The notes below the pieces were generated by a model. The model was not told the origin of the DNA. It saw only the letters and a program-made list of their open reading frames with translations, and ran no database searches. DNA of 40,602 nt, from the IMG/VR virus record IMGVR_UViG_2541047755_000009. One strand, 5' to 3'. How positions within the stretch are numbered: the first letter of the stretch is position 1; the number at the start of each line of letters is the position of its first letter. Made by a program: the position numbers and the translations under genes. Of the stretch, positions 6,586 through 38,105 are shown in pieces. This stretch comes from a virus. Taxonomy: Duplodnaviria > Heunggongvirae > Uroviricota > Caudoviricetes.

Positions 6586-6602
6586 ATTACCTTTCAGGTA
6601 AT
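6586..6602. promoter_or_regulatory. operator-like palindrome ATTACC-TTTCA-GGTAAT (site A)
   Basis: perfect 6+5+6 inverted repeat abutting a TTGCAA -35-like hexamer upstream of the 6678 gene. Confidence 0.55.
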
Positions 6603-26315: not shown

Positions 26316-26392
26316 GTGGCATTAGCTCAGTTGGACAGAGCAACCGCCTTCTAAGCGGTTGGTCGCAGGTTCGAATCCTGCATGCCACGCCA
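26316..26392 (+). tRNA. tRNA-Arg, anticodon UCU (reads AGA)
   Basis: 77 nt cloverleaf: acceptor GTGGCAT / ATGCCAC, D-stem GCTC / GAGC with A20, anticodon stem ACCGC / GCGGT, loop CTTCTAA, T-arm GCAGG-TTCGAAT-CCTGC, G73, encoded CCA. Confidence 0.9.
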
Positions 26393-28533: not shown

Positions 28534-29126
28534 TGATTACCATCCTGACGTTCTTTGAGTCGCTTCCTGGCTGCTGCTATGCGATCAGCAATTGTCACAT
28601 TCACATTAACATCCAGACGTTCTTTGAACGCGTTGACATCAACATGCTTACCAATCAGTTCTAGGTTCTTCACCTTGTCAGGCCATTTAATTTTTTTGAG
28701 GATTGTCTCTATCGAATCCTCGTTCATGTTCATGATGGTCGATGACAGATCAAAGCCACTAAGCGTAGTGCGCCAGATTTTCGGCCACTCACGGATTGGT
28801 TTAAGGCTCCCATCGTCGTTGAGGATATCGATCACGTCCATCTGGTCGATCTCCACCAAGCGCATGAGAACGTAATCAGCACTGACGCGCATTCGTTTGT
28901 TGCGCTCCTCCATCAACTCGGCAATCCGTTTTTGAATGCGTTCATCGCGCATCATGACACTGGCTTTAACTGCCGCTGTATTTGGGGAGAATCCTGCGTT
29001 AATCGCTGCCTGAGTCTGGTTTTCAGGCGTTTTGATGTATGACTGGCAATAAGCCTCCTGCATTGCTGTGAGCGGCTTAAATTGCGTTGATTTGCGTTTA
29101 TAGGTTTTAGGTTCAGCAGGCATCAT
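28530..29126 (-). CDS. terminase small subunit
   Basis: about 198 aa from the ATG doublet near 29126 (track ORF extends to a TTG at 29204 without RBS); directly upstream of and coupled to the large subunit. Confidence 0.6.
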   Translation of the reverse strand: MMPAEPKTYKRKSTQFKPLTAMQEAYCQSYIKTPENQTQAAINAGFSPNTAAVKASVMMRDERIQKRIAELMEERNKRMRVSADYVLMRLVEIDQMDVIDILNDDGSLKPIREWPKIWRTTLSGFDLSSTIMNMNEDSIETILKKIKWPDKVKNLELIGKHVDVNAFKERLDVNVNVTIADRIAAARKRLKERQDGNQ

Positions 29127-34146: not shown

Positions 34147-34383
34147 TCAGCTTGAATGTTGTGGGGAGGAATTAATCATGATCTGCTTAATCTCTGCCCT
34201 GATACGACGGTTTGATTCCATGGTGCACTCAACACAGTGTCCGTTGTAAACCCAGCGTTCACTGTCATGTCCGTGCTTACATGTTTTTCCGGTGTAGTAG
34301 CGTTTAAGTCCGCGCTTTGCGGCATCAATACGTGTAATGATTTCCATGGTAAGCCCTGTTATTAGTATTGGGATTACGGTCAT
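34147..34383 (-). CDS. small zinc-ribbon protein (CxH...CVEC), function unknown
   Basis: Cys/His cluster; start ambiguous (ATG at 34383 or 34347; track begins at TTG 34410). Confidence 0.4.
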   Translation of the reverse strand: MTVIPILITGLTMEIITRIDAAKRGLKRYYTGKTCKHGHDSERWVYNGHCVECTMESNRRIRAEIKQIMINSSPQHSS

Positions 34384-34426
34384 TTTGTGCTGACACAAAA
34401 AAAATATCAACCAGATTTGGTTTTTT

Positions 34427-34442
34427 ATTACCTTTGAGGTAC
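34427..34442. promoter_or_regulatory. operator-like site ATTACC-TTTGA-GGTAC (site D) downstream of the Cro-like gene
   Basis: one mismatch in the right half-site. Confidence 0.4.
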
Positions 34443-34497
34443 GAATAGATATGAAAAGACCGCCGGGTGGCGGTCTACAGAGGGTTGTAGCTGGATA

Positions 34498-34728
34498 TCA
34501 TGAGTAGAAGAAGTATGCCAGTTCTGCTTTTGAGCGCAGCCATTGTCTTGTTTTACAGGCTTTAAAAAGCCCATTCATCAATACTTTACCTGGCATTTTG
34601 CGCTTACCTGTTAAGTGAGTCTGGATATAGTGACTCGTCGTTCCGGCTTCCTGTGCGAAGGCTTCACGCTCATCCGGAGTAAGTGCAAGCCAGTGCTTTT
34701 TGAAATCGAAATGTCCGTTATCGCTCAT
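34498..34728 (-). CDS. Cro-like HTH regulator
   Basis: 76 aa; first gene of the rightward early operon, divergent from the repressor; HTH-like segment AFAQEAGTTSHYIQTHLTGKRKM. Confidence 0.55.
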   Translation of the reverse strand: MSDNGHFDFKKHWLALTPDEREAFAQEAGTTSHYIQTHLTGKRKMPGKVLMNGLFKACKTRQWLRSKAELAYFFYS

Positions 34729-34763: not shown

Positions 34764-34828
34764 TTCACCCATAAGGTAACAAAAATCAAGGATAGTTACC
34801 TATGAGGTGCATTTACCTGTTGGGTAAT
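34764..34828. promoter_or_regulatory. immunity-region operators (three sites) with divergent promoters
   Basis: TTCACC-CATAA-GGTAAC, GTTACC-TATGA-GGTGC and TTTACC-TGTTG-GGTAAT within the 154-nt gap; on the cro strand a TTGTTA-N17-TATTAT promoter-like pair overlaps the first site. Confidence 0.65.
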
Positions 34829-34882: not shown

Positions 34883-35467
34883 ATGAAAAGTATCCAGGAC
34901 GTCCGCAGGCAAAATCTCAACGACTTGATCGACCGTGAATTCAATGGTGTTCAGACGCGGATGGCAGAAAAACTTGGAACTCAGGCAAATCTGGTAAACC
35001 GCTGGGCTCTTGGCAAGAAGGTTATCGGCGACCAGGTTGCACGAAAAATTGAAGCTGCCGCCAATAAACCCCGTAACTGGCTTGATATTGATCGCTCGCT
35101 TTCTCAGGAGGGTTTTCAGCCTGTCGGCCCGAGCGATATAGGTCAGCTGGCGGCTCACAACCTGGAACGCTGGATGAGCGAAAGCCGCGACCTTTCAACG
35201 CAGGGAAAACTACACCGCGCATCCGGCGTCGCCCAGGTGACAATCAGCCGCCTGTTAAACAATGAGGTCAGCGTTTCCATTTCCACCCTGGAGAATGTTG
35301 CATCCGCATTCGGGCGTCACGGCTATGAATTACTGATTCACCCGCACGACCCTGCGACCATCAACTATGATCGCTCGCGCTACGCATTGTTACCCGAAAC
35401 CGAGAAAGCAAAGATCGAAAGTTACATTGAATTTGTCATCAACCAGAACGAAAAAAACAAACAATAA
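34883..35467 (+). CDS. prophage repressor, dual HTH, no S24 peptidase domain
   Basis: XRE-type HTH QTRMAEKLGTQANLVNRWALGKK plus a second HTH-like segment; no Ser/Lys autocleavage module at 194 aa; divergent from the Cro-like gene across the operator cluster. Confidence 0.7.
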   Translation: MKSIQDVRRQNLNDLIDREFNGVQTRMAEKLGTQANLVNRWALGKKVIGDQVARKIEAAANKPRNWLDIDRSLSQEGFQPVGPSDIGQLAAHNLERWMSESRDLSTQGKLHRASGVAQVTISRLLNNEVSVSISTLENVASAFGRHGYELLIHPHDPATINYDRSRYALLPETEKAKIESYIEFVINQNEKNKQ

Positions 35468-35489
35468 AATCATATTTTTCAGTAAGTAA

Positions 35490-35511
35490 GCCGCCAGAAG
35501 GCGGCTTTTTT
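35490..35511 (+). terminator. rho-independent terminator after the repressor gene
   Basis: GCCGCC-agaa-GGCGGC followed by TTTTTT. Confidence 0.75.
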
Positions 35512-35523
35512 ATTGCCTATTCG

Positions 35524-35602
35524 ATTACCTAATGGGTAATTTTTTTAACTCATATCTATTGACATCAAACCAGATACGCATAATTATTACCTCAACGGTA
35601 AC
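35524..35602 (+). promoter_or_regulatory. promoter for the plus-strand early operon bracketed by two operators
   Basis: ATTACC-TAATG-GGTAAT (perfect), TTGACA -35, TAATTA -10-like hexamer about 16-17 nt later, then ATTACC-TCAAC-GGTAAC. Confidence 0.6.
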
Positions 35603-35620
35603 AGACCGAGGTAACAAGTT

Positions 35621-35773
35621 ATGCAGTGGAAAATCATCAACGGTTGGTACTGCGTTACTGCATGCGGATTCATGAGCTGGAAGTTCCGCACCTTACAGGA
35701 AGGCATTAAGTGGGCTTTCGTCAGCAAAGAAGCTCGCGATGTGGCAAACGATAACGAGATATGGGAGGGCTGA
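35621..35773 (+). CDS. 50-aa Trp/Cys-containing small protein (hypothetical)
   Basis: not in ORF track; GAGGTAA RBS then ATG; first ORF after the promoter; product MQWKIINGWYCVTACGFMSWKFRTLQEGIKWAFVSKEARDVANDNEIWEG. Confidence 0.4.
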   Translation: MQWKIINGWYCVTACGFMSWKFRTLQEGIKWAFVSKEARDVANDNEIWEG

Positions 35774-35775
35774 TA

Positions 35776-36075
35776 ATGAACGTTAATCAGCAGAAAAATC
35801 TTCAAAAAATCATGCTGGCATTCGACAAGGACTACCGCCTGTCAGAACAGCTATATGACCGACAAGTTGAACTGATTGAGAGTATCCGGCTTCATCAACT
35901 GACCTCAACTTTCGACGTTGTAACAGGCAAAGGCGTTCGTCAGGAAGTGCTGGAGGCTGCTAAAGACAGCCCTGAGTTCGAAGAACTGATGGATGCCTAC
36001 CGGCGCGAGGCAATGGCAATTATCGCCCGCTGGGATCTGGCGGATCAGCTTGATGGACAGAGGGACGCGGCATGA
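35776..36075 (+). CDS. hypothetical early protein (about 100 aa)
   Basis: ATG at 35776 with GGGAGGG RBS; overlaps the next gene start. Confidence 0.5.
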   Translation: MNVNQQKNLQKIMLAFDKDYRLSEQLYDRQVELIESIRLHQLTSTFDVVTGKGVRQEVLEAAKDSPEFEELMDAYRREAMAIIARWDLADQLDGQRDAA

Positions 36076-36893
36076 ATCCGGGAATTTATTTCGATATCAG
36101 CAACGAAGACTACCACGCCGGTGACGGCGTGAGTAAGTCGCAACTGGACATGGTTGCCAAGAATCCGGCGCTTCTTAAATGGGTTCAGGCAGCACCAGAA
36201 GACGAAGAGAAAAAGTCTGCACTGGATATGGGAACCGCATTGCACTGTCTGCTTCTGGAGCCTGGAGAGTTCGACAAACGCTTCATTGTTTCACCGAAAT
36301 TCGATCGTCGGACGAAACAAGGTAAAGCTGACGAAGAGGCATTTCTTCGTGATGTGGCGGATATGGGGATTACGGTACTTGATGCCGAGCAGTGGCGGAA
36401 ACTGGAGTTGATGCGTGATAGCGCAATGGCTCATCCGGCGGCACGCTGGATGCTGGAAGCACCTGGTTACTGCGAAGCATCAATGTACTGGAACGATGAA
36501 GAGACGGGTGAGTTGTGCCGAATTCGTCCAGACAAATGGCTAAACGAGCACAACGTGATCGTCGACGTGAAAAAGGTTGCAGATATGGACCGTTTTGCAC
36601 GCCACATCGAGGAATTCCGCTACCACGTGCAGGACGCAATGTACCGCGAAGGCGCAATGAGGGTTACTGGTCAGCCACATGGTTTTTTCTTTCTTGCCGT
36701 GAGCGAAAGCATTGATTGTGGTCGGTATCCGGTACGCGTGTTCGGGCTGGATGCGCCAGATGTCGATGCCGGGCACGCTCTGTTCCGCCGGGATCTGAAT
36801 ACCTATCACGAATGCCGCATCAACGATGAATGGGGCGGCGTGGAAATTATTAAACGCCCTGAGTGGGCACGCAAACAGGATATGTACGTATGA
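36072..36893 (+). CDS. exonuclease partner of the annealase (PD-(D/E)XK-type, tentative)
   Basis: 273 aa immediately upstream of and overlapping the Bet/RecT-like gene; the canonical position of the recombination exonuclease. Confidence 0.5.
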   Translation: MNPGIYFDISNEDYHAGDGVSKSQLDMVAKNPALLKWVQAAPEDEEKKSALDMGTALHCLLLEPGEFDKRFIVSPKFDRRTKQGKADEEAFLRDVADMGITVLDAEQWRKLELMRDSAMAHPAARWMLEAPGYCEASMYWNDEETGELCRIRPDKWLNEHNVIVDVKKVADMDRFARHIEEFRYHVQDAMYREGAMRVTGQPHGFFFLAVSESIDCGRYPVRVFGLDAPDVDAGHALFRRDLNTYHECRINDEWGGVEIIKRPEWARKQDMYV

Positions 36894-37807
36894 GCAACGA
36901 AATTGCAATCACCAATGATGTGTTGGCTATTCGGGGAATCGATGAAGTTACATGGAGCGCTCTGAAAAACAGTATTTACCCTGGGGCAAAAGATGAATCG
37001 GTAATGATGGCAGTCGATTACTGCCGGGCGCGTCAACTCGATCCTCTTCTTAAGCCGGTACACCTGGTACCAATGAGTGTTAAAGACTCGAAGAGTGGAA
37101 AGAATGAATGGCGCGACGTGGTCATGCCTGGCATTGGACTTTATCGCATTCAGGCCTACCGTTCCGGCGATTACGCAGGCGCTAATGAACCTGAGTTCGG
37201 TCCAGATGTAACACAAACGCTTTCAGGCGTGGAGGTTACCTTCCCTCAGTGGTGTAAGTACACCGTCAGCAAGCGAATGGCAAGCGGGGAAATCGTAGAG
37301 TTTAGCGCCAAAGAATACTGGATTGAGAACTATGCAACTGGGGGGCGTGACACATCGGCACCAAATGCCATGTGGAAAAAGCGCCCTTATGCGCAGTTGG
37401 CAAAATGCGCAGAGGCACAGGCATTACGTAAAGCATGGCCGGAGATTGGTCAACAAGCCACAGCTGAGGAAATGGAAGGTAAATATATCGACTCACCTGA
37501 CATTATTGAACGTGACGTAACTCCAAGAAGTCAGGCAAAGCACGGCACAGCATCCAGCATGAACAGTCTGATCAACGCTAAAACAGTGAAAAAGCCTGAT
37601 GAGCAAACGCGTAAAGCGGATAGCCGTGATCCAGAAGAAATGCTGATGGCCTTTACCAGCGCAGCGATGAATTACAGCACTGTCTCCGAACTGGATAAGG
37701 CTTACAAATACATTGCACAAAAACTTTCAGATGATGACGAACTGCTGGCAAAAGCCACCGACGTTTACAGCGTTCGTCGGGAAGAATTAAACGAAACATC
37801 TATGTAA
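36890..37807 (+). CDS. single-strand annealing protein (Bet/RecT family)
   Basis: ATG at 36890 overlapping upstream stop; N-terminal region patterned like lambda Bet; acidic C-terminal tail. Confidence 0.65.
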   Translation: MSNEIAITNDVLAIRGIDEVTWSALKNSIYPGAKDESVMMAVDYCRARQLDPLLKPVHLVPMSVKDSKSGKNEWRDVVMPGIGLYRIQAYRSGDYAGANEPEFGPDVTQTLSGVEVTFPQWCKYTVSKRMASGEIVEFSAKEYWIENYATGGRDTSAPNAMWKKRPYAQLAKCAEAQALRKAWPEIGQQATAEEMEGKYIDSPDIIERDVTPRSQAKHGTASSMNSLINAKTVKKPDEQTRKADSRDPEEMLMAFTSAAMNYSTVSELDKAYKYIAQKLSDDDELLAKATDVYSVRREELNETSM

Positions 37808-37856: not shown

Positions 37857-38105
37857 ATGAAAGGTGCATTAGGTAAGAAGGAACTCCTGGCGGTGGTGCC
37901 ACTGTCATGGAGCACTATCGACCGTATGGAGCGCGCAGGGGAATTTCCTAAACGCTGGTATATCACCGATAAACGCTGCGCATGGAACCGTGATGAAGTT
38001 GAGCGTTGGCTTGATGAACGTCAGGCAGCAAGCCCGGCAGAGTTCCAGGGTAAAAAGCCTCCTGTTCAGCAACGTGTATATCGTCCCGTGAGCAACGCTG
38101 CATGA
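37857..38105 (+). CDS. AlpA-family HTH protein (excisionase/regulator candidate)
   Basis: 82 aa; resembles the AlpA-type prophage regulator motif; located near the integrase. Confidence 0.55.
   Translation: MKGALGKKELLAVVPLSWSTIDRMERAGEFPKRWYITDKRCAWNRDEVERWLDERQAASPAEFQGKKPPVQQRVYRPVSNAA

Follow-up and report, generated by a model that had tools for sequence, protein, structure and literature searches.

Conserved small proteins p50 and p99 at the head of a lambda-like early-left recombination operon in phiV10/epsilon15-type phages

Here we report that two small genes at the front of a phage early-left operon, p50 and p99, encode genuine, lineage-specific proteins that are conserved in sequence, hold a fixed place ahead of a nuclease/annealase pair and lie directly behind an operator-bracketed promoter, with stop and start codons that adjoin or overlap from one gene to the next. 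Both belong to the window, by which we mean the whole 40,602-nucleotide stretch of viral DNA that was analysed. Judged by sequence comparison, the window is a phiV10/epsilon15-type temperate podovirus (Uetakevirus), another isolate or prophage of the phiV10 species group: the ~3.5 kb surrounding p50 and p99 shows 97-98% identity with Escherichia phages phiV10, EC.W1-9, ZX5 and TL-2011b, and 70-80% with Enterobacter phages Tyrion and BUCT554. p50 corresponds to phiV10 gp39 and epsilon15 gp37, and p99 to phiV10 gp38 and epsilon15 gp36 (identity to phiV10 of 100% and 99%, respectively); set against these two phages, the window has the same promoter, operators and downstream genes, with no substantive difference. 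As sequence features, p50 and p99 are already in public records (phiV10, epsilon15, SPC32H), where they are annotated as "hypothetical protein" in every database record and likewise in the PGAP calls for E. coli. In the literature searched, we found no test of either protein.

The first gene, p50 (35621-35773, plus strand), specifies a Trp-rich protein of 50 residues, with five Trp, two Cys, six Lys+Arg and a pI of 6.1, and its ATG follows a Shine-Dalgarno GAGG (35608-35611) at a distance of 9 nt. It matches PHROG 898 over its entire length (E 1.9e-38, residues 1-50 of 50). Residues 1-16 do not vary among 23 cluster representatives, residues 1-25 hardly vary across the family, and pairwise comparisons between lineages over codons 1-24 yield a pS of 0.26-0.66 against a pN of 0.02-0.08; it is because of this near-invariant N-terminus and this excess of synonymous change that we consider the amino-acid sequence itself to be under selection. 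The C-terminal half is far more variable than codons 1-24, and AlphaFold2 models the protein as a single low-confidence helix (pLDDT 59.5). An RNA element in place of p50 was rejected on account of the lack of an Rfam match, a folding z of -0.02 relative to shuffles and the occurrence of synonymous changes across the conserved codons.

The second gene, p99 (35776-36075, plus strand), starts 2 nt beyond the p50 stop and specifies an acidic (pI 4.7), all-helical protein of 99 residues, which matches PHROG 856 in full (E 2.1e-55, residues 1-99 of 99), evolves at a dN/dS of 0.08-0.37 and is modelled by AlphaFold2 as four helices (pLDDT 73.7). A sequence-only reading of this DNA had placed a Trp/Cys-rich peptide of 50 residues and a protein of roughly 100 residues ahead of an exonuclease/annealase pair. 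The peptide and the gene order are as it described, and the larger protein is present with a refined start: the mechanical ORF spans 104 aa from 35761, relatives annotate the ATG at 35776 that gives 99 aa, and this ATG stands 6 nt downstream of a Shine-Dalgarno GGGAGGG (35763-35769). The p99 stop is overlapped by the ATG of a RecE-type PD-(D/E)XK exonuclease gene (ATGA at 36072; 36072-36893, plus strand; Pfam DUF3799, E 1.2e-21; PHROG 412, exonuclease VIII), the stop of which is overlapped in turn by the ATG of a gene for a RecT single-strand annealing protein (ATGA at 36890; 36890-37807, plus strand; Pfam RecT, E 1.2e-28). Next in the operon is an AlpA-type excisionase/regulator (37857-38105, plus strand; Pfam Phage_AlpA; PHROG 66). 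The nuclease and annealase are annotated in phiV10 as a "RecE-RecT fusion", which stems from one extra A in an A-run before the nuclease stop (L001, ~4974); the window (36873-36876) and EC.W1-9 have one A fewer and hence separate genes with an ATGA overlap, and the fusion may represent a sequencing error or a strain-specific frameshift.

Searches across phage and bacterial genomes define the reach of the pair. Of 50,697 phage records, 36 have significant tblastn matches, in each case to both p50 and p99, and all 36 are Uetakevirus-type; seven further p99 matches, all in N4-like phages, are at chance level (E 0.4-0.9); a profile search with the p99 alignment through 1.84 billion representatives returned 34 clusters only, every one a member of the p99 family; and p50 was found in 368 IMG/VR stretches. 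A 631-bp segment is present in 559 of 5,426 complete E. coli genomes (~10%), and one genome scan located the module in seven species of Enterobacteriaceae or Erwiniaceae, always in an identical context. The order repressor gene, terminator/operators, p50, p99, nuclease, RecT, AlpA is common to phiV10, epsilon15, Tyrion, BUCT554, Klebsiella phages, SPC32H and PAT1, and the succession rep-p50-p99-nuclease-RecT was kept in all 167 of the related loci fetched, flanks included, with p99 identities as low as 34%.

Within this frame the recombination genes are exchanged and additional genes are inserted. In about one fifth of 160 IMG/VR loci p50 and p99 are retained together with a YqaJ-type nuclease and another RecT, which take the place of the RecE-type nuclease and its RecT. 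The exchange takes place as a block, in which the DUF3799 nuclease and its RecT give way to a YqaJ/lambda-Exo-type nuclease with another RecT and the flanking p50, p99 and AlpA genes are unchanged, as seen in locus L012 (4297-6228), in L015 and in 18 of the 80 loci L102-L181. The matching of p99 to one specific nuclease was rejected, p99 subtypes and nuclease types being shuffled relative to one another. The p50/p99 and p99/nuclease junctions are insertion points. Inserts of ~1 kb lie between p50 and p99 (L007, 1459-2493; L016, 3001-3993; L109, L114, L134 and L135). One insert, shared by phiv142-3 with Citrobacter and Kluyvera prophages, encodes a Glu/Lys/Ala-rich protein of 330-344 aa that has no Pfam match. 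Other inserts comprise a Cys-rich ORF of 45 aa in Tyrion (L004, 3107-3244), an 84-aa ORF in BUCT711 (L008, 2944-3198) and a 203-bp segment in six IMG/VR loci, and in SPC32H an HNH endonuclease gene is located between the nuclease and RecT genes.

Upstream of p50 lies the repressor gene (Rep; 34883-35467, plus strand; Pfam HTH_3), the product of which has two HTH domains and aligns with the SPC32H Rep structure (PDB 5D50, E 4e-42) over residues 1-190, spanning both HTH domains and the C-terminal domain. Overexpression of ZX5 ORF21, which is near-identical to the window Rep, abolished free phage and lowered holin and endolysin transcription by 99.97-99.99% (PMC9782041), and the SPC32H Rep acts as a tetramer on palindromic sites and is dismantled by the antirepressor Ant (PMC9638917, PMC9986798). 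The repressor gene is followed by an intrinsic terminator (35488-35507, plus strand; a G+C-rich hairpin with an 8-bp stem containing six G-C pairs, then a T-run), which is annotated in phiV10 and conserved in Tyrion and BUCT554. Beyond it, on the same strand, is an early-left sigma-70 promoter (35559-35587), the equivalent of lambda PL, composed of TTGACA (35559-35564), 17 nt and AATTAT (35582-35587); its 10/12 match to consensus is the best in the region, and all seven aligned lineages keep the -35 hexamer and, within the -10, ATTAT. The promoter is bracketed by two exact TTACC-N5-GGTAA palindromes. The distal operator, TTACCTAATGGGTAA (35525-35539), aligns with an epsilon15 RefSeq site annotated as a "repressor" protein_bind feature, and the proximal operator, TTACCTCAACGGTAA (35587-35601), overlaps the end of the -10 and the likely transcription start. 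Their centres are 62 bp apart in the window and 62-63 bp apart in all seven aligned lineages, throughout which the operator-promoter-operator architecture is conserved and coincides with the repressor-binding sites annotated in the epsilon15 RefSeq record. A leader of ~70 extra nt, containing a hairpin and a third operator just upstream of the p50 ribosome-binding site, separates promoter and p50 in epsilon15 (L003, 2443-2530) and likewise in L006, L009 and L010; it is found in Salmonella and Klebsiella lineages and is absent from E. coli and Enterobacter lineages, including the window.

The terminator and the operator-bracketed promoter on the repressor strand had both been read correctly from the letters of the window, whereas the accompanying claim that such a layout is unusual and unlike lambda does not hold. 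One strand of lambda carries cI, rexA, rexB, OL3-OL1/PL, nutL, N and, further along, cIII, kil, gam, bet, exo and xis; phi80 carries cI, gene 40A, OL/PL, N, kil and, further along, gamL, a RecT-like annealase gene, exo and xis. Because both show this order, it is the rule for the repressor gene and the early-left promoter to point the same way, and by its gene order the window reads as an ordinary lambda-type early-left transcription unit, in which the terminator separates the repressor gene from the promoter. Further likenesses to lambda and phi80 are operators that overlap the early-left promoter, a divergent promoter with three operators at the opposite flank of the repressor gene, and an excisionase gene placed after the recombination genes. 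Unlike these two phages, the window has int on the opposite strand and lacks both a nut site and an N antiterminator; neither Pfam nor PHROG connects p50 with N, and the leader gives no Rfam or RNA-structure signal. It also departs from them in having two operators 62 bp apart that bracket the promoter rather than three adjacent ones, in the possession of a two-HTH, tetrameric, antirepressor-inactivated Rep in place of a LexA-like, self-cleaving cI, and in the recurrence of the operator motif at seven other places in the genome.

The divergent side contains a 76-aa Cro/CII-like gene (phiV10 gp41; 34498-34728, minus strand; PHROG 35, "transcriptional repressor", E 5.6e-13), annotated in phiV10 and transcribed divergently from the repressor gene. 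A motif search located three operators equivalent to lambda OR, at 34765-34779, 34796-34810 and 34813-34827 (one, two and no mismatches, respectively), the first of which is overlapped by a minus-strand promoter-like site (34782-34754). After the 76-aa gene comes a terminator (34457-34476, minus strand), followed by a near-perfect operator (34428-34442) and a promoter-like site (34382-34410). As these two precede a 66-aa gene and the replication genes, replication seems to be served by a Rep-controlled promoter of its own. Over the window as a whole, ten exact copies of TTACC-N5-GGTAA occur against an expectation of 0.01, a count reached in 0 of 100 shuffles. This dispersal of exact copies suggests genome-wide control by Rep, in which one repressor would govern many separate transcription units in place of a lambda-style antitermination cascade. 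Outside the immunity region the exact copies are at 6587, 6967, 8009, 25972, 29144, 32420 and 32482. Copies with one mismatch are at 29126, 34428 and 34765; dispersed operator sites are already annotated as repressor-binding in the epsilon15 RefSeq record.

As to function, the sequence-only reading had pointed to the host-takeover or anti-restriction functions, such as Ral, Gam or Kil analogues, that commonly fill the first-expressed slot of lambdoid phages, a proposal that is reasonable by position and for which homology support is absent from Pfam, PHROG, PDB and PADLOC alike. Neither p50 nor p99 matches any Pfam-A family at E up to 1, and the Kil and Ral models that Pfam contains are among those searched; nor did either match an NCBIfam model, a PDB sequence or a PADLOC model at E up to 1, and each matches solely its own function-unassigned PHROG. 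A defence or toxin-antitoxin component was rejected, PADLOC giving no match for either protein.

Tentatively, we read p50 and p99 as linked accessory proteins that serve the recombination module, p99 through an effect on DNA-end metabolism, a reading that we regard as possible and well short of probable. In a lysogen, Rep would occupy the two operators 62 bp apart as a tetramer, a single tetramer presumably bridging both by looping, and would shut the sigma-70 promoter at 35559-35587, which the terminator at 35488-35507 would insulate from transcription of the repressor gene. Upon infection or antirepressor action the promoter would fire, and a single mRNA with adjacent or overlapping stop-starts would deliver p50, p99, the exonuclease and RecT, then the excisionase and later genes; from this arrangement we infer both the timing of expression and a translational coupling of successive genes. 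Placed in the slot that elsewhere holds Gam, GamL or Abc2, p99 might modulate a host DNA-end nuclease such as RecBCD, short of abolishing RecBCD, or might assist Exo/RecT, and p50 could be its small partner or co-factor.

The distribution of Chi sites bears on the form that such an activity might take. An octamer search of the window found nine copies of Chi, GCTGGTGG, all on the minus strand (10420, 11794, 13626, 14041, 17215, 19017, 22485, 31767 and 39731), against an expectation of 1.4 and with no shuffle out of 100 reaching that number; the stretch from 31.8 to 39.7 kb, which holds the recombination module, has none. All six sites of epsilon15 share a single orientation, as do those of phiV10, at least 7 in number (seven in the first 27 kb), the sites of both phages being co-directional with the terminase and structural genes. 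(In the window a tRNA-Arg gene with anticodon TCT, 26316-26392 on the plus strand, lies upstream of the terminase genes and on the strand opposite to them.) Lambdoid phages that encode an anti-RecBCD protein are mostly without Chi, and the combination of own Exo/RecT with many co-oriented Chi sites is rare (Zheng et al. 2025). The P22 proteins Abc1, Abc2 and Arf, which resemble p50 and p99 as small proteins encoded within a recombination module, aid recombination or re-programme RecBCD and do not destroy its activity (PMC12315714; bioRxiv 2026). By analogy they are the functional model that best suits a Chi-rich genome, and a modulating (Abc2-like) or accessory role is possible for p99; P22 itself differs from the window in its Erf annealase and its lack of Chi sites, and the comparison of p50 and p99 with the P22 proteins consists of the negative Pfam and PDB searches only. 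The stronger proposal, that p99 (perhaps with p50) founds a new sequence family of modulators of host DNA-end processing that re-programmes, and does not block, RecBCD or another host nuclease in a Chi-rich phage, we hold to be distinctly doubtful. If true, the phage would exploit RecBCD-Chi recombination and its own Exo/RecT simultaneously, which is rare among lambdoid phages.

A role unrelated to recombination is the chief competitor to the accessory-protein reading, and one that we judge somewhat unlikely. Here p50 and p99 would serve in host takeover or in the lysis-lysogeny decision after the manner of Kil or cIII, for example as a cell-division inhibitor or as a protease inhibitor stabilising a CII-like factor, or would have an anti-defence function at the front of the operon. 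The 47-70-aa proteins of lambda and phi80 (kil, cIII) are encoded upstream of gam in the same operon, p50 is about as long as cIII (54 aa) and Kil (47 aa), the window has a Cro/CII-like gene of its own, and the persistence of the pair through swaps of the nuclease and annealase points the same way. Against this, the closeness of the pair to the nuclease gene speaks for a common function, and no Pfam family matches either protein. A by-eye likeness of p50 to lambda cIII (MQWKIINGW...RTLQEGIKW vs MQYAIAGW...RKLRDGWKR) was followed up and rejected: BLASTP produced no alignment, hhalign gave a probability of 0.5%, and the Lambda_CIII model (PF02061), which hits lambda cIII at E 1.5e-30, leaves all three p50 variants tried unmatched at E up to 10. 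In cIII the central helix is the essential region; the invariant part of p50 is N-terminal, the opposite of the cIII conservation pattern.

It is more doubtful still, and in our view unlikely, that p99 is a true Gam-type DNA-mimic dimer that fully blocks the DNA-entry site of RecBCD and would constitute a third Gam-fold sequence family after Gam and GamL. Like lambda Gam, p99 is encoded adjoining the exonuclease/annealase genes, its stop overlapping the exonuclease start; it has no detectable sequence relationship with lambda Gam or phi80 GamL. For lambda Gam (PF06064; 2UUZ, 5MBV) there was no Pfam match and no Gam in the PDB profile search, GamS gave an hhalign probability of 4% and a BLASTP segment of just 33 residues that was out of register, and Foldseek did not confirm a match to lambda Gam; for GamL the hhalign probability was 0.1% and the BLASTP E 5.6. 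A full Gam-type inhibitor is moreover less likely because the window, unlike most Gam-encoding phages, is Chi-rich, and lambdoid phages with anti-RecBCD proteins are mostly without Chi.

We consider it very unlikely that p50 is chiefly a translated leader that feeds ribosomes to a weak p99 start, its peptide having little or no function. The junction has features that would suit such a role, in that the p50 stop lies 2-4 nt from the p99 start, or overlaps it, in all lineages, this start is GTG in most of them, the p99 Shine-Dalgarno falls within the last p50 codons, and the p50 C-terminus switches reading frame between lineages while the underlying DNA is conserved. The near-invariant N-terminus of p50 and its low pN argue otherwise, as do the several lineages in which a ~1-kb gene stands between p50 and p99 and p50 is still intact. 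Finally, a miscall of p50, with a structured RNA or an antisense 72-aa ORF (35587-35805, minus strand) as the real gene, is scarcely credible: the antisense stop-free stretch of 67-74 aa is open in nine of nine lineages examined, and the Tyrion record annotates it (gp39) and omits p50, but it shares wobble positions with the sense frame, which makes its openness and partial conservation by-products and led us to reject it as a gene, the nonsynonymous/synonymous count is 0.99 in sense against 1.54 in antisense and amino-acid identity 0.77 against 0.69, it is the sense ORF that has the conserved promoter, GAGG and ATG, and the RNA alternative meets the same lack of an Rfam match or of folding beyond shuffles that was noted above.

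Together, these results describe a regulatory layout that is textbook lambda, so that the observation is real yet ordinary, and a lead on the function of p50 and p99 that is modest. The two genes are restricted to their lineage and stand, strictly conserved, at the front of a recombination module that ~10% of complete E. coli genomes carry, with many pathogenic strains among these; recent work regards the slot they occupy as a source of RecBCD modulators yet to be described. Should p99 turn out to be a RecBCD modulator in a Chi-rich phage, it would provide a further case for the study of the balance between host recombination and a phage's own, and RecET recombineering might be improved by it.
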